Under the pieces are notes generated by a model, which had not been told where the DNA came from, made no database searches, and saw only the letters and a program-made list of their open reading frames with translations. From positions 1-38,298 of the IMG/VR virus record IMGVR_UViG_3300040801_000896: a stretch of DNA of 38,298 nt. The stretch is one strand, 5' to 3'. Each line of letters begins with the position of its first letter. The stretch's first letter is position 1. The stretch comes from a virus. Below are positions 4,110 to 34,331 of the stretch, in pieces. The translations under genes and the position numbers were made by a program.

Positions 4110-6002
4110 TTGATGCAAAACAACCTTCAAGACTTGGCAATCCGGCGGCAGGTCCTCCTTGAACGGCTCAAGTCCGGGCAAGTGGAGAACTTCAAGAAAG
4201 CCTTCCGGGAACTGGAAGCCTTGACCAAACAAGCGTTTGCCGGGCTTTCGGGCCCCCTCTTGGACCTCAAGAAACGGGAGACCGCCCGGTTTTTGGCCGA
4301 ACTTGAAACAGACATCCGGAAAGCCTTGACCGGGCAAACGGACCTTTACATCCGGGACCTTGAAGAGGTTGCCGGGATTTACGCCACAACGGAAGCGGCG
4401 GACCTTGTGAAGGTGACTTCCGGACCCATCAAGTTGAAGGTTCCCAAGAAAGCCGCCTTGATGCGTAATGCCCTCACCCGCCCCATGGGCCATTCCGGGG
4501 AACTTCTCAAGGAATTTGTGGGGCAGATTGCCGGGAAGGAGTCTTCCCGGGTTGTCAATACCATCCGCAAGGGAGTAACCCAAGGGAGGACCAACCAAGA
4601 ATTAATTCGGTCTGTCATTGGGACCAAGGCAAGGAACTTCCGGGATGGAGTCCTTGCAACCTCCCGGAGAAATGCAGATGCAGTTGTCCGGACGGCAACC
4701 CAACACGTTGCCAGTTCCGCCCGGCAAGACCTTTGGGAAGCCAACCCGGAGACGGTCCAAGGTTATCAATGGGTTTCCACCTTGGACCGGAAGACAACCA
4801 ACCTTTGCAAGAGCCTTGACGGACGGAAGTTCAAGGTTGGGGAGGGCCCCACCCCTCCAATCCATATCCGTTGCCGGTCAACTACCATTGCCACCCTTGA
4901 CCCCAAGTTTGACTTTCTCCAAGAGGGCCGAACCCGTTCGGCGGAATTTGGGCCAACCAAGGGAGATGAAAATTACTTTGATTGGCTCAAGCGGCAACCC
5001 CCGGAGTTTCAGGACCAAGCCTTGGGCAAAGCCCGGGCAAAGCTCTTCCGGGACGGGGGCTTGTCCCCGGATGAGTTCTCCCGGCTTCAACTGGACAAGA
5101 ACTTCCGCCCCCTCACCCTTGAGGAAATGCGGCAACTTGAACCGGAGGTCTTCAAGAAGGCTTTCCCACCCAAACCCAAGGTCATTGAAACCCCCCCAAG
5201 GGACTTTGCCAAGATCACAAAGGAAATTGCTTCCTCCCCGGAATGGGACAAAGCCTTAAAAGCCCGGGAAGAAGCAGACCACCTCTTCAAGATTGCTTAT
5301 CCGGGAAGCTCCGGGACCGGGACGGACCTTGACCGGGCTCTTTGGATGGCGTCCAACAAAACGGCCAACCAATTGAGGCGGGAAGCCCTTGAAGGGGTTC
5401 ACAAACGGGTTGAGTTGCCCAAGGTAAGGCAGGGGGACCCGTCAAAGGTGGTTGTCCCCGGGGTCCTTAATGCCCCAAAAAATGTAAACCGGCAACGTTT
5501 GGGATACATGGACACAACCGCAACGGAAGCTTCGGAGTTTGTCTCCCGGGTTGTGGACAAGGATTACCTTCCCCAAGGAATCCGGATGCAATACAAGCCC
5601 GAACGGAACCACTATTGGAAAGGGGAAGTTTTCGTCAACATTGACACTTCAACCCGGGTCATGGCCCATGAAATCATCCATGATATTGAGTTCAAACACT
5701 CCGGGGTTGCCGCCAAGACAAGGGCATTTTTGAATAAAAGAGCGGGGGGCCAACCCACCAAAAAGCTTTCCAAATTGACCGGGGACAAGGGTTACAAACC
5801 CCATGAAATTGCCTTTGAAGATGAATGGGCCAAGCGGGGCGGCTCCCACTATATGGGCAAAGATTATTCCCAATGGTATGAAGCAACCGAACTTCTCACC
5901 ATGGGGGTTGAGCGGTTGATGTTTGACCCGGTGAGTTTTGCCCGGCAGGACCCGGAATATTTTGAATTTCTCTTGGAGGTTTTCCAGACTCCGGGGCTTT
6001 AG
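4110..6002 (+). CDS. Head morphogenesis protein (Mu F / SPP1 gp7-like) fused to a C-terminal HExxH zincin-like domain
   Basis: The MuF hallmark segment GYQWVSTLDRKTTNLCKSLDGRKF...PPIHIRCRSTT is present (the family pattern is D-x-R-T-C-x-x-C ... H-x-x-C-R-C). About 300 further residues follow and contain MAHEIIHDIEF (HExxH, nt 5667-5681). Confidence 0.85.
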   Translation: MMQNNLQDLAIRRQVLLERLKSGQVENFKKAFRELEALTKQAFAGLSGPLLDLKKRETARFLAELETDIRKALTGQTDLYIRDLEEVAGIYATTEAADLVKVTSGPIKLKVPKKAALMRNALTRPMGHSGELLKEFVGQIAGKESSRVVNTIRKGVTQGRTNQELIRSVIGTKARNFRDGVLATSRRNADAVVRTATQHVASSARQDLWEANPETVQGYQWVSTLDRKTTNLCKSLDGRKFKVGEGPTPPIHIRCRSTTIATLDPKFDFLQEGRTRSAEFGPTKGDENYFDWLKRQPPEFQDQALGKARAKLFRDGGLSPDEFSRLQLDKNFRPLTLEEMRQLEPEVFKKAFPPKPKVIETPPRDFAKITKEIASSPEWDKALKAREEADHLFKIAYPGSSGTGTDLDRALWMASNKTANQLRREALEGVHKRVELPKVRQGDPSKVVVPGVLNAPKNVNRQRLGYMDTTATEASEFVSRVVDKDYLPQGIRMQYKPERNHYWKGEVFVNIDTSTRVMAHEIIHDIEFKHSGVAAKTRAFLNKRAGGQPTKKLSKLTGDKGYKPHEIAFEDEWAKRGGSHYMGKDYSQWYEATELLTMGVERLMFDPVSFARQDPEYFEFLLEVFQTPGL

Positions 6003-6244
6003 TAAACCCGCCCCGGGACGGATTCAAAATCCGGCTCCGGACCAACCACTTTACCCCCAAGCTTCCGGGCAACGGCTTGGGCCCGGTGCCATGGGGTGGG
6101 GTAATAATCAACCGGAATGGTTTCATCCGCTTCCGTGATTTTCAGCAAAGCTTCTTTGGGCCCGGACAGGATGGACCAAGAGCCCCCCTCAAGGGAGGCG
6201 GTAACTTCATTCCCGGCGGGGAACAGATATTTGATTTTTTCCAT
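5999..6244 (-). CDS. Hypothetical 81 aa protein, opposite-strand moron
   Basis: ATG at 6244 (MEKIKYLFPAGNEV...). Its stop overlaps the MuF stop codon (5999-6002). No family recognised. Confidence 0.55.
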   Translation of the reverse strand: MEKIKYLFPAGNEVTASLEGGSWSILSGPKEALLKITEADETIPVDYYPTPWHRAQAVARKLGGKVVGPEPDFESVPGRVY

Positions 6245-6452
6245 GATATTTGAAACCTAATGAGGTCAATTGAAGAAGTAAACGGTTGTCAATGGAGTGG
6301 GGCCCCCCGGGGTTGAAGACAGATTTGCCCCCAATCCCCAAGGTAAAGCAAGCCGCCTTGATGGAAGCCCGGTCCGCAAGAGTTGACCCATGGAGGGCAA
6401 CCCATGAAGAGGGGGAACCCCCTTGCCATATTGTGAAGAAAGATTTTTCCAT
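6207..6452 (-). CDS. Hypothetical 81 aa ORF directly downstream of promoter-like module A (coding status uncertain)
   Basis: The ATG at 6452 lies 5 nt after the conserved module, the same geometry as at 9751 and 34295. It overlaps the next ORF by 38 nt. A competing plus-strand ORF (6286-6582) exists in this stop-poor sequence. Confidence 0.35.
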   Translation of the reverse strand: MEKSFFTIWQGGSPSSWVALHGSTLADRASIKAACFTLGIGGKSVFNPGGPHSIDNRLLLQLTSLGFKYHGKNQISVPRRE

Positions 6453-6486
6453 ACCTCAACAAAAACCGTTTTTCGGTTTAGGTCAA
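6453..6486 (-). promoter_or_regulatory. Promoter/operator-like module A: TTGACC-17 nt-TTTGTT-5 nt-ATG
   Basis: Minus-strand reading is TTGACC TAAACCGAAAAACGGTT TTTGTT GAGGT ATG. It is near-identical to the modules at 9752-9786 and 34296-34331. Confidence 0.6.
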
Positions 6487-6578
6487 CCCCTAAAACAGAA
6501 AACGGTTGAAATTTTCCACCCCCACCCATTTGATGGGACTTTCTTAACGGGCGGCGGTGCCGTCCCAACCCAAAAAAT

Positions 6579-7280
6579 ATGAAGTTCAAAGCAACCAAAG
6601 CGGAAGTTGAATCACTCCCGGAAGCCATCCGGGGCGAATATGAGGAAAGAGAAGGTTCTTTTTTCCTGAAACTTGAAGGGCATGAAGAAGCCTTTGTCCC
6701 GGCGGAAAAGAAGAACATTGCCGAACAACACCGGAAGGAGGCGGAAAAGAAACTTGCGGAAGCCAACGCCCGGGAAGCGGACTTGATTGCCAAGCTTGAA
6801 AAGGCGGACGGCAAGAAGGAGGTTGAAGCCATCCGGCAACAACACCAAGCGGAAATCCTCAAAATCAAGGAGGCGGCGGATAAAGAGCGGGAAGCCATCA
6901 AGGGCAGGGAACACCAAGCCTTGATTGAAACGGAAGCCGCCAAATTTGCCGGGGAAAAGTTCCTTGTTCCTTCCGCAATCTCCCGACTTTACAAGGACCG
7001 CCTTTCCGTTGAAGAGGTTGACGGGCAACCCGTAATCCGGGTCCGGGAGCCGGACGGCAAACCGTCCGTCAAGTCTCTTTCGGATTTGCAAAAAGAATTC
7101 CTTGAAAATCCGGAGTTCAAGCCCATCATTAAAGCAAGTCAGGCTTCCGGGGGCGGTGCCATCCCGGGGCAAAAGGGCGGAGGTTCCGCACAAAAGACCG
7201 TTCAACGTTCGGAGTTCGATTCAATGGACCAAACCGCCCGGATGGAATTTTCCAAAGCCGGGGGCAAGGTGGTTGACTAG
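6579..7280 (+). CDS. Scaffolding protein
   Basis: 233 aa, rich in E/K/A and coiled-coil-like (AEQHRKEAEKKLAEANAREADLIAKLEKADGKKEVEAIRQQHQAEILKIKEAADKEREAIK). It lies immediately upstream of the major capsid gene. Confidence 0.75.
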   Translation: MKFKATKAEVESLPEAIRGEYEEREGSFFLKLEGHEEAFVPAEKKNIAEQHRKEAEKKLAEANAREADLIAKLEKADGKKEVEAIRQQHQAEILKIKEAADKEREAIKGREHQALIETEAAKFAGEKFLVPSAISRLYKDRLSVEEVDGQPVIRVREPDGKPSVKSLSDLQKEFLENPEFKPIIKASQASGGGAIPGQKGGGSAQKTVQRSEFDSMDQTARMEFSKAGGKVVD

Positions 7281-7320: not shown

Positions 7321-8496
7321 ATGTCTAATACCATTACACTTACCAATCTTGCACCGGAGATTTACAAGGCGGCGGACATCGTTGCCCGTGAGCTTGCCGG
7401 GGCAATTCCGTCCGTCATGGTCAACACGGCGGACGCAAACGGGGTGACTCAAGCTTCCTTCGGGGACAAGGTGAAGAGCCTTCGAACTTCGGATGCAGTT
7501 ATTGGAACCTCCCATACCCCCGCAATGGCAATCCCGGAAGCGGCGGACCAAACAGACATTTACGATGAATTTGCTTTGGACCAGACCGCAACGGCGGAAC
7601 TCCCCTTGACTGGGGAAACGGTCAAGCGGTTGAATCAATCGTCCGGGGCGGAAGCCTTCCGGGTTGCGAAGTTTACCCAAATGATCCGGGGCATGGTCAA
7701 TGCTATGGAGTCCCACCTTTGCAGCAAAATCTATGTTGCAAGTTCCCGGGCTTACGGGACCGCCGGGACAACCCCGTTTGGTTCCAACTTCAATGATCTG
7801 GCCCAACTCCGCAAAATCCTTGCGGACAATGGGGCTCCGGTTAATTCGGGGGAACTTTCGGTTGTGATGAACACTTCCGCCGGGGCCAACCTTCGGAGTC
7901 TCGCCCAATTGCAAAAGGCCAATGAAGCCGCCGGAACGGACCTTCTCCGCCGGGGGACCCTCCTTGACTTGCAAGGGTTCATGCTCAAGGAATCCGCCGG
8001 GATTGTGACCCATACCAAGGGGACCGCCACCCTGTTTGATGCTGCCGGGGGTGAACCCGCCGGGGAAACCTCCATTGCCTTTGACGGTGCAACCGCCGGG
8101 GCAACGGGTATTCTTGCCGGGGACATCGTGACTTGGACAGGGGATACCAATAAATATGTTATCAAAACCGGGGTCAACGGGGCAACCGGAACCATTGTTC
8201 TTGGTCGTCCGGGTCTTCAACAGGCTCTCTCGGATACCGTTGAAGGGACCATTGGGGCTTCCTATACCGCCAATCTTGCCTTCCATCGGTCCGCCGTTGA
8301 ATTCGCCGCCCGGGCTCCGGCTCAACCGGACGGTGGGGACGCTGCGAAGGACTCCTTGACGGTGGTTGACCCCCTCACCGGGTTGACCTTTGAGTTCCGC
8401 CTTTATGCGGGATTTGGAATGAACAAGATTTATTGCGCCGTTTACTACGGGGCAAAAGTCTGGAAAGAGGAATTTGTTGCCACCCTCCTTGGGTAA
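7321..8496 (+). CDS. Major capsid protein
   Basis: 391 aa ORF after the scaffold gene, followed by a strong intrinsic terminator. Size and position fit an HK97-fold coat protein. No motif-level identification was made. Confidence 0.8.
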   Translation: MSNTITLTNLAPEIYKAADIVARELAGAIPSVMVNTADANGVTQASFGDKVKSLRTSDAVIGTSHTPAMAIPEAADQTDIYDEFALDQTATAELPLTGETVKRLNQSSGAEAFRVAKFTQMIRGMVNAMESHLCSKIYVASSRAYGTAGTTPFGSNFNDLAQLRKILADNGAPVNSGELSVVMNTSAGANLRSLAQLQKANEAAGTDLLRRGTLLDLQGFMLKESAGIVTHTKGTATLFDAAGGEPAGETSIAFDGATAGATGILAGDIVTWTGDTNKYVIKTGVNGATGTIVLGRPGLQQALSDTVEGTIGASYTANLAFHRSAVEFAARAPAQPDGGDAAKDSLTVVDPLTGLTFEFRLYAGFGMNKIYCAVYYGAKVWKEEFVATLLG

Positions 8497-9433: not shown

Positions 9434-9751
9434 TCAAATGATTTCCGGGTTTTCAGGGAAGACCACCGGGAGCCGTTCCAACTTGTGGGGGCGGACTTCA
9501 ACAGTGTCCCGGGGGCTTGCCCAGACTTTCTTTTGTAAAACCCGGGTATGGTTGGCAACCGGAAGTTGGACGGTAAGCAAGACCGAATCCGGGGCGGGGC
9601 GGTTTGCAAAATGATGCTCTGTTGACTTGTCCCGCCCATGGACGGCAACAATCTTGGCGGGGAAGGATTGCCCATCCAAAAGGAAGCAATCCAATTCGTC
9701 CTTATGGAAGACAACATGGAGGAGGGAAACGGTATAGTGTTTTTTGAACAT
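9434..9751 (-). CDS. Hypothetical 105 aa protein, opposite-strand moron
   Basis: ATG at 9751 (MFKKHYTVSLLHVVFHKDELD...). It is preceded by promoter-like module B and followed by the bidirectional terminator. No family recognised. Confidence 0.65.
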   Translation of the reverse strand: MFKKHYTVSLLHVVFHKDELDCFLLDGQSFPAKIVAVHGRDKSTEHHFANRPAPDSVLLTVQLPVANHTRVLQKKVWASPRDTVEVRPHKLERLPVVFPENPEII

Positions 9752-9786
9752 GACTTAAACAAAAACCGTTTTTCGTTTCCGGTCAA
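9752..9786 (-). promoter_or_regulatory. Promoter/operator-like module B: TTGACC-17 nt-TTTGTT-6 nt-ATG
   Basis: Minus-strand reading is TTGACC GGAAACGAAAAACGGTT TTTGTT TAAGTC ATG. Confidence 0.6.
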
Positions 9787-33624: not shown

Positions 33625-33855
33625 TCAAAGGTATGGGTTGAAGGAGAGGATTTGCTTGTCTGAATGGGTCCGCTCTTTGGCGGGGGTATCAATGGCCCGA
33701 AGGTTGGGGAGGACCCAAGTTTGGACATAAAGCCGGACGGCTTCCTTGTGTTCATTGGCAACCCCGCAAGTGGAGTCCGGGGCGGTTGAAATGAGGGCTT
33801 CAAGTTTCTTGATGGATTCCTTGAGGGCCCGGGATTCTTCTTTGGTCATGCTCAT
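33625..33855 (-). CDS. Hypothetical protein, 76 aa (ORF-track start 33936)
   Basis: The ATG at 33855 overlaps the upstream TGA (ATGA). MSMTKEESRALKESIKKLEALIS... Confidence 0.5.
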   Translation of the reverse strand: MSMTKEESRALKESIKKLEALISTAPDSTCGVANEHKEAVRLYVQTWVLPNLRAIDTPAKERTHSDKQILSFNPYL

Positions 33856-34295
33856 TGATTGATTTTGTGGAGGTTGTGGGAAAGCCGCCGTTTGGCTTCC
33901 TTGCGAAGGGTGGGGACGGCAAAAGGATTGACCCAAGAGCCAAAACGCTTGTTGAGGCGGTCAAGGATGGGCCCGGCGGAATCATAATCAAGGAAAGGGG
34001 CAACATCCCGCCCAACAGACCAATCCGCCCCGGCAACATCCCATTTGGCTTCCATACCCAAGACATATTCAAGGAGGGAAATTTCTTGTGGGACCAAGCC
34101 CATGGATTGGGCAATGTCTTCCCGTTCCATGGCAAGTTCGATGGGCTCAAAACCTCCCCGGGCTTCAAACCAAGCTTGGGGCATTGCCGGGAGCTTTTCC
34201 ACTTCTTCAAGTTGGGAAAGAATCTCCCGTTGGTTGGCAACCATGGTTTCCCGTTCTTTGCGGGTCACCTTGTAAATGAATGAATTCTTGGGCAT
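33852..34295 (-). CDS. Hypothetical protein, 147 aa (ATG 34295; ORF-track start 34463 runs through the promoter-like module)
   Basis: MPKNSFIYKVTRKERETMVANQ... The start lies 7 nt after module C. Confidence 0.6.
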   Translation of the reverse strand: MPKNSFIYKVTRKERETMVANQREILSQLEEVEKLPAMPQAWFEARGGFEPIELAMEREDIAQSMGLVPQEISLLEYVLGMEAKWDVAGADWSVGRDVAPFLDYDSAGPILDRLNKRFGSWVNPFAVPTLRKEAKRRLSHNLHKINQ

Positions 34296-34331
34296 GGTTT
34301 GAAACAAAAACCTTTTTTCGTTTCCGGTCAA
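34296..34331 (-). promoter_or_regulatory. Promoter/operator-like module C: TTGACC-17 nt-TTTGTT-7 nt-ATG
   Basis: Minus-strand reading is TTGACC GGAAACGAAAAAAGGTT TTTGTT TCAAACC ATG. Confidence 0.6.

Follow-up and report, generated by a model that had tools for sequence, protein, structure and literature searches.

A small opposite-strand gene adjoining a MuF gene, and its product as candidate partner of the zincin-like MuF C-terminal domain in a metagenome-derived virus

MuF proteins are incorporated into the phage capsid at the portal and exit from it with the DNA. Where such proteins carry C-terminal effector domains, a small putative immunity open reading frame (ORF) follows in 89% of 191 cases; metallopeptidases make up 20% of the described cases of these polymorphic toxins, which have been reported exclusively in temperate phages (Jamet et al. 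2017, PMC5576092). The exchange of the C-terminus together with the immunity gene over a conserved N-terminus is what defines polymorphic toxin/immunity cassettes (Zhang et al. 2012, PMC3482391; PMC5576092). Zincin metallopeptidase (MPTase) domains are also common in phage polyvalent proteins and have been linked to lethal factor (Iyer et al. 2017, PMC5512222). In the current study, we analyzed the virus record IMGVR_UViG_3300040801_000896, a complete, terminally redundant, metagenome-derived genome of 38,298 bp that is called the window here, and in particular the gap between its MuF-like gene (4110-6002, plus strand) and its head scaffolding protein gene (6579-7280, plus strand). We consider it fairly probable that this gap holds one real gene, at 5999-6244 on the minus strand, and that its product of 81 amino acids (aa) is the cognate partner or inhibitor of a zincin-like domain at the C-terminal end of the adjacent MuF protein.

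The locus is similar to the described MuF toxin/immunity systems (PMC5576092, PMC3482391) in that an N-terminal MuF part is combined with a variable enzymatic C-terminus, a small ORF of less than 150 aa adjoins it, and the C-terminus and the small ORF are swapped jointly between close relatives. It differs from them in that the partner belongs to a family that is new and unannotated, and the toxicity of the C-terminal domain is putative. Furthermore, the partner gene in the window is inverted, convergent with MuF, and has a promoter-like module of its own, whereas the classical immunity gene lies downstream and is co-directional. The published systems are those of temperate phages, whereas the present phage is probably virulent, because neither a tyrosine integrase nor a serine recombinase was found in the 38,298-bp genome; its T7-like replication set points in the same direction.

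Compared with the MPTase domains of polyvalent proteins, of which PMC5512222 distinguishes 12 clades, the MuF domain shows the same HExxH helix followed by a helix with a conserved Glu, the same distant link to the anthrax lethal factor/M34-type fold, and the same fusion to MuF as a hub for virion-delivered effectors. Unlike there, a dedicated trans-acting partner is proposed here; none was found in the examined passages of that paper. Bxa-Bsi (Alexei et al. 2024, PMC11699363) is likewise a phage-encoded polymorphic effector neutralized by a small, bound cognate protein; however, Bxa is an ADP-ribosyltransferase with another N-terminal carrier encoded by a Bacteroides prophage, and Bsi is unrelated in sequence to the protein studied here.

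The gap between the MuF stop codon (6002) and the scaffold start codon (6579) measures 576 nucleotides (nt), 1 nt less than an earlier note on this DNA had given. Two minus-strand ORFs, 6452-6207 and 6244-5999, had been recognized there, and their coordinates were verified: both encode 81 aa, both start with MEK, 38 nt are common to the two, and the second ends in a TAA (5999-6001 on the plus strand) that overlaps the TAG of MuF (6000-6002). The stop-poor composition that had been pointed out was also confirmed, since there are 0.027 stop trinucleotides per position where 0.047 would be expected, about 57% of random expectation over the whole genome. Because stops are scarce and 118 of the 164 ORFs of at least 81 aa in the genome are without coding signal, open frames by themselves are weak evidence here. 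The frames were evaluated with a codon log-odds score trained on 14 confident genes of this phage, for which windows in the true frame averaged 0.354 (standard deviation 0.144) and windows in a wrong frame averaged -0.417 (standard deviation 0.242).

ORF 5999-6244 on the minus strand is a real gene. Its codon score is 0.364, and its start context closely resembles that of the coat gene in a genome whose gene starts are preceded by A/T-rich tracts and not by Shine-Dalgarno sequences. The upstream ORF 6207-6452 scored -0.147 as a whole and 0.008 outside the overlap. The two 81-aa ORFs are therefore not equivalent, and only the downstream one rises above chance. The sequence was identical across three DNA runs (short contigs), all of which come from one microbial-mat sample; no RNA run was listed as containing it. 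Among the short contigs, L003 is identical to the window and L004 differs at two sites, 6495 (A>G) and 6529 (T>C); both differences lie between the promoter-like module (called module A below) and the scaffold gene, outside ORF 6207-6452. Gene calls on L003 and L004 included 5999-6244 on both and 6207-6452 on neither, and disagreed over two different plus-strand ORFs.

Sustained coding signal was absent from 6245-6578 in every frame. The plus-strand ORF 6286-6582 (98 aa), which the earlier note had named as the gene that might be real instead, is non-coding by composition, with a codon score of -0.226 (-0.423 for its 49-aa version, 6433-6582), inconsistent calls on L003 and L004, and no relatives found. 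The accessory module on the opposite strand that had been proposed behind a palindromic operator is thus upheld as a single gene, 5999-6244, reading antisense into MuF behind a repeated promoter/operator-like element, and not as a module of two genes. The absence of a convincing terminator was borne out as well, with 4 terminator-like sites against 3.4 expected from shuffled sequences.

An exhaustive HMMER search of 1.8 billion representative sequences with the 81-aa protein (P0001) returned ten homologues, 58-86 aa long, at E-values between 3e-11 and 8e-4. The family shares the motifs Tyr-(Tyr/Phe)-Pro-Thr-Pro-Trp-(His/Asp), Leu-Gly-Gly, and Pro-x-Pro; the Trp, Gly, and Pro of the family motif are invariant, and the C-terminus nearly always consists of an aliphatic and then an aromatic residue. 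The protein from the window is acidic and comprises three strands, two helices, and a flexible tail ending in Val-Tyr; its AlphaFold model, in which the tail is disordered, has a predicted local distance difference test (pLDDT) score of 78. No Pfam, PHROG, NCBIfam, or PDB-profile family matched it, only chance-level rows appearing at E-values up to 0.1-1, and no useful structural match was obtained in Foldseek, the ESM Atlas, or an exhaustive comparison (best Z 4.1, root-mean-square deviation (rmsd) 3.6 Å, 50 residues aligned). Taken with its homologues, the protein is best described as founding a new, unannotated family of small phage proteins of about 80 residues (74-86 aa).

Since the HMMER search was run without a length filter, fused forms of the family could have appeared in it, and none that is convincing did. 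The long matches P0002, P0003, P0005, and P0013 were set aside: three are immunoglobulin-like/coiled-coil repeat proteins whose scores sum weak stretches, and P0005, which has no Pfam match, likewise matches in six short stretches. Scans of viral contigs for close relatives of the 81-aa protein, ORF 6207-6452, ORF 6286-6582, and the scaffold protein gave nothing, as did a scan of metagenome contigs with the 81-aa protein, and tblastn of that protein against GenBank phages gave chance matches only. A scan with a family sub-alignment detected 0 copies in 185,579 species-representative genomes and none in viral contigs; its sole metagenome match (L019) was spurious, being a bacterial locus without a matching ORF.

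The MuF-like minor head protein of 630 aa was identified by its N-terminal MuF/SPP1 gp7 domain, PF04233, at residues 148-260 (E 3e-11), by the head morphogenesis family phrog_241 (E 3e-116), and by TIGR01641 (E 2e-14). Its C-terminal domain (residues 431-630; 5400-5999, plus strand) was delimited by alignment, an AlphaFold model, and structural matches, and contains an HExxH motif at residues 520-524 (nt 5667-5681). In seven aligned sequences, His520, Glu521, His524, Tyr581, Tyr586, Glu594, Arg602, and a Phe-Ala-x-x-Asp-Pro motif are invariant. The AlphaFold model of residues 431-630 (pLDDT 88.9) places both the HExxH motif and the downstream Glu in predicted helices (fragment residues 85-99 and 165-175). 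In an exhaustive structural comparison, the top matches were all zincins, namely the Pro-Pro endopeptidase PPEP-3 (Z 7.9, rmsd 3.7 Å, 147 aligned residues), the catalytic domain of anthrax lethal factor (Z 7.6, 3.3 Å, 149), and PPEP-2 (Z 7.5, 3.5 Å, 139), and the ranking consisted almost exclusively of zinc peptidases. These matches are middling. Since both the motif and the lethal factor connection published for MPTase domains of polyvalent proteins (PMC5512222) point the same way, the last ~200 residues of MuF are assigned to a putative zincin-like metallopeptidase domain, for which protease activity is predicted.

Homologous domains were found in three cultured phages. In Flavobacterium phage pippi8-1, gp28 carries one (hhalign probability 99.1%) and is followed by gp29, a positional analogue of 70 aa that ends in Ile-Tyr. 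Planktothrix phage PaV-LD (L020, 1781-4026) has two tandem HExxH-domain genes, each matching at an E-value of about 1e-29; the product of the second carries the annotation of a virion structural protein, and two small ORFs (91 and 103 aa) lie behind it. Xanthomonas phage Rb1 also contains a homologous domain.

The small gene is tied to this domain across related loci. It touches or overlaps the 3' end of MuF in six lineages checked by sequence, namely the window, L006-8, L009, L010, L012-15, and L016-18, and, by its gene layout, on the contig carrying P0004, being convergent with MuF in the window, the P0004 contig, L009, and L010 and co-directional in L006-8, L012-15, and L016-18. These loci represent at least three phage backbones, with DUF4055 or Phage_portal_3 portals and differing downstream genes. 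All of their MuF proteins have one common HExxH domain at the C-terminus, including those that are unlike in portal family and N-terminal part: residues 437-626 of the window MuF match L016 at an E-value of 1e-17 and L012 at 1e-15, and the MuF cores barely match. A domain of 171 aa that seemed to stand alone in L015 belongs to a MuF gene truncated where the contig ends.

The domain and the small protein also vary jointly, as observed between the relatives L006 and L009 and not in the window itself. The MuF proteins of these two phages are 90-100% identical over residues 1-340, their scaffold proteins are 94% identical, and the intergenic/promoter region before the scaffold gene is nearly identical. 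Right after residue 360, MuF identity is 12-30%, with 40-60% in the catalytic core, and the small proteins are 39% identical and encoded on opposite strands. As read from the sequences, this swapping of the MuF C-terminus together with the small gene, the only difference between phages that are otherwise ~94% identical, is the signature of a polymorphic toxin/immunity cassette.

The complex of the MuF domain and the small protein was predicted with separate alignments for each partner. The domain and the 81-aa protein gave an ipSAE interface score of 0.76 (0.75, 0.78, and 0.76 in the individual runs), and the best control gave 0.00; in calibration, 58 of 80 solved complexes attained the mark that this pair passes, and so did 2 of 110 mismatched pairs, a guide that is only rough here, as own alignments were used. 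The runs agreed in at least 90% of contacts, and the pLDDT of the partner was at least 87. On the side of the small protein, the predicted interface comprises residues 44-52, which contain the conserved motif, and the C-terminal tail (residues 70-81). On the side of the domain, it comprises an edge strand (fragment residues 68-73), H94 (the second zinc-binding His), Y151, Y156, E164 (the presumed third ligand), and R172. Invariant residues from both partners are included, and the predicted complex would look like that of an active-site-blocking inhibitor. This prediction is independent of the genomic evidence.

In the potato and leech carboxypeptidase inhibitors and in the serralysin inhibitors, a terminal tail is inserted into the active site of a metallopeptidase. 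The 81-aa protein resembles these inhibitors in mode only, as seen in the predicted complex; no similarity in sequence or fold to described metallopeptidase inhibitors was detected by PDB sequence profile, Foldseek, or the exhaustive aligner (best Z 4.1).

Upstream of the two ORFs lies module A (6453-6486, minus strand), a promoter/operator-like element in which TTGACC and TTTGTT are separated by 17 nt that include a 6-bp palindrome around five A's; an ATG comes 5 nt after it. The genome has three copies, which share TTGACC-N17-TTTGTT. The third (34296-34331, minus strand) lies within the replication arm, 7 nt before gene 33852-34295, whose coding signal starts exactly at the ATG, with a codon score of 0.348 beyond it and -0.04 ahead of it. 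The second (9752-9786, minus strand) is followed 6 nt on by the ATG of a 105-aa ORF (9434-9751, minus strand) with a codon score of 0.164 (0.33 in its 5' part) and no family match. Two of the three copies thus stand directly before convincing gene starts. The region 9434-9786 forms a second gap in the late operon, between the head-tail adaptor Ad1 and the head closure protein Hc1.

A 15-nt core of the module (four A's, CGG, five T's, and GTT) recurs exactly in two distant relatives, L006-8 and L009, where it occupies the intergenic stretch ahead of the scaffold gene, reads against the structural genes, and precedes the start of an opposite-strand gene by 34-42 nt; the chance expectation of such core matches is about 1e-4. 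In the window, a partial inverted copy of the core (6489-6507, plus strand) faces the scaffold gene and forms a 19-nt inverted repeat with 6464-6482 (84% complementary). Three of the five genome copies of AAACGGTT words are located in 6280-6507, at 6280 (plus), 6464 (minus), and 6500 (plus), two of them facing each other as this inverted repeat, which suggests that 6280-6507 is a regulator-binding region, possibly for divergent promoters. From these observations, we infer that genes expressed apart from the late operon have their promoter, and possibly an operator, in module A.

Concerning the mechanism, since MuF proteins leave the capsid with the DNA, the HExxH domain would probably be a virion-delivered effector or a processing protease. 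The small protein would bind across the catalytic cleft of this domain, laying its Tyr-Tyr-Pro-Thr-Pro-Trp-His motif and its tail against the edge strand, the second zinc-binding His, Glu594, and the invariant tyrosines. We infer that the protease would in this way be kept inactive in the producing or already infected cell, the small protein serving as an immunity protein or as a trans-acting pro-peptide. The 81-aa gene would be read from module A, on the strand opposite to the late operon; as the same promoter-like element is found inside the replication arm, its expression would be independent of, and probably earlier than, that of the late MuF gene. It is conceivable, and we suggest this only tentatively, that a virulent phage carrying a polymorphic injected zinc protease and a strand-flipping, early-promoted inhibitor possesses an effector timing device in the form of a cassette that diversifies in an arms race against host targets or rival phages, and in which the incoming protease may be active only briefly, until newly made inhibitor shuts it off.

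Several points weigh against the 81-aa protein being the cognate partner or inhibitor. In L005, a family gene precedes a serine recombinase, and no MuF is present on the 1.9-kb contig. The conserved adjacency among related phages partly reflects shared ancestry. The structural matches of the MuF domain all have Z below 8, and the Foldseek E-values are all above 0.3. The small protein gp29 of pippi8-1 shows no similarity to the family by hhalign, and binding between the domain and the 81-aa protein is a prediction and not a measurement. As to expression, a sigma-70 consensus scan reported no promoter at module A; TTGACC and the 17-nt spacer fit sigma-70, whereas TTTGTT is without the canonical -10 A at position 2. 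Finally, the ATG of ORF 6207-6452 occupies the same place as the real gene starts 6-7 nt after the other two module copies, and an ATG would fall within that 3-nt window by chance in about 5% of cases.

This last point fits a two-gene minus-strand operon, in which a leaderless mRNA beginning with the ATG at 6452 would yield a lineage-specific product of ORF 6207-6452 that acts jointly with the 81-aa protein, as a toxin-antitoxin (TA)-like or moron pair. We regard such an operon as unlikely. Along the ORF, the middle third does score 0.32; however, the first 20 codons score -0.21 and the remaining parts 0.00 and -0.19, and frames of this length without coding signal are abundant in the genome, as described above. 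A search of 5.8 billion predicted proteins with the ORF product gave zero matches, itself included, no gene call covers the ORF, those on the full contig included, and the related loci hold no counterpart; in L009, only 98 nt separate the small gene from the scaffold gene. The idea that the ORF is a remnant of the cargo genes of relatives was rejected by tblastn. The doubt that the earlier note itself had cast on this first ORF was thus justified, and its translation into a functional protein appears rather doubtful.

The same evidence bears on the TA module that had been suggested for the two small ORFs. Small adjacent, overlapping ORFs behind a palindrome do resemble type II TA modules, but the upstream ORF is unsupported, and neither 81-aa product matched a TA family or any other known family in Pfam, PHROG, or NCBIfam; the functional partner of the 81-aa protein is probably the large structural protein encoded next to it. 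The locus is a MuF-metallopeptidase/small-partner cassette with a conserved promoter-like module, not a TA pair of two small ORFs.

The region 6245-6452 is most likely a 208-nt leader of the 5999-6244 transcript, untranslated or incidentally translated, and at most a lineage-specific leaderless ORF. Of the structured 5' leader or non-coding RNA that had also been considered, the G/C palindromes do exist (about 6301-6314 and 6413-6424), and the idea itself is possible but weak: the folding z-scores of the putative leader, -2.35 for the minus and -1.39 for the plus strand, are suggestive at most, and Rfam returned only sub-threshold chance rows on 5900-6700.

It is also possible, at a rather low probability, that the 81-aa protein binds the MuF domain without inhibiting it, as an assembly chaperone or adaptor, as co-packaged cargo, or as a substrate cleaved at its tail. 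The adjacency, the co-variation, and the predicted interface fit such a binder equally well, a tail lying in the cleft is likewise substrate-like, and MPTase domains of polyvalent proteins have been proposed to take part in processing for packaging (PMC5512222). However, fast joint divergence between near-identical phages is typical of conflict systems and not of assembly factors, and separate, probably earlier transcription from the opposite strand is more what would be expected of a protective factor than of an assembly partner needed in stoichiometric amounts.

Like a hot spot for cargo, the slot between MuF and the scaffold gene holds other opposite-strand genes in relatives, namely an unrelated 123-aa gene in L006 (4237-4608) and four extra small genes in L010 (2347-3351). 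Although this cargo, the unrelated 105-aa ORF behind the second module copy, and the L005 family member away from MuF would also suit an independent moron, for example, for anti-defence or host takeover, inserted in a recombination hot spot with 6245-6578 as merely a divergent regulatory region, this is very improbable, considering the link to the HExxH domain across three backbones and in both orientations, the constant contact of the small gene with the MuF stop codon, and the complex prediction that passes its mark with the controls at zero.

MuF-fused effector domains are widespread, but for almost none of them has a partner been validated or a role established. Metallopeptidases are the commonest domain of phage polyvalent proteins, for which the 81-aa protein as cognate partner or inhibitor offers a candidate means of control. 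The present data provide a concrete pair, in which the predicted interface between a domain of 200 residues and a partner of 81 covers the catalytic residues, and this pair appears to be exchanged as a unit between near-identical phages. The logic of MuF effectors and immunity may thereby also cover a phage that appears not to be temperate and an immunity gene that is inverted and separately promoted, and a cultured analogue exists in gp28/gp29 of Flavobacterium phage pippi8-1. The locus also illustrates how, in a stop-poor genome, just one of two look-alike ORFs is a gene.

As for the surrounding genome, the left arm is a rightward head-tail operon comprising terminase, portal, MuF, scaffold, and a P22-type coat protein (7321-8496), and the right arm runs leftward and includes a T7-like replication set of primase, DNA polymerase, Gp2.5-like single-stranded DNA-binding protein, exonuclease, and helicase. 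In L012 (3248-7534), and also in L013-L015, MuF and the small gene are followed by a glycosyltransferase/methyltransferase cluster where structural genes would be expected. The scaffold gene, which forms the right border of the gap, was identified by phrog_206 (E 2e-30). In the window (6549-6565), in L009 (~760-775), and in L006 (~4672-4690), its start codon is preceded at a distance of 13-20 nt by a G+C-rich hairpin whose loop is GGT; the stem sequence differs between the window and L006/L009 and the pairing is kept, and the hairpin might influence translation or stability at the scaffold gene.

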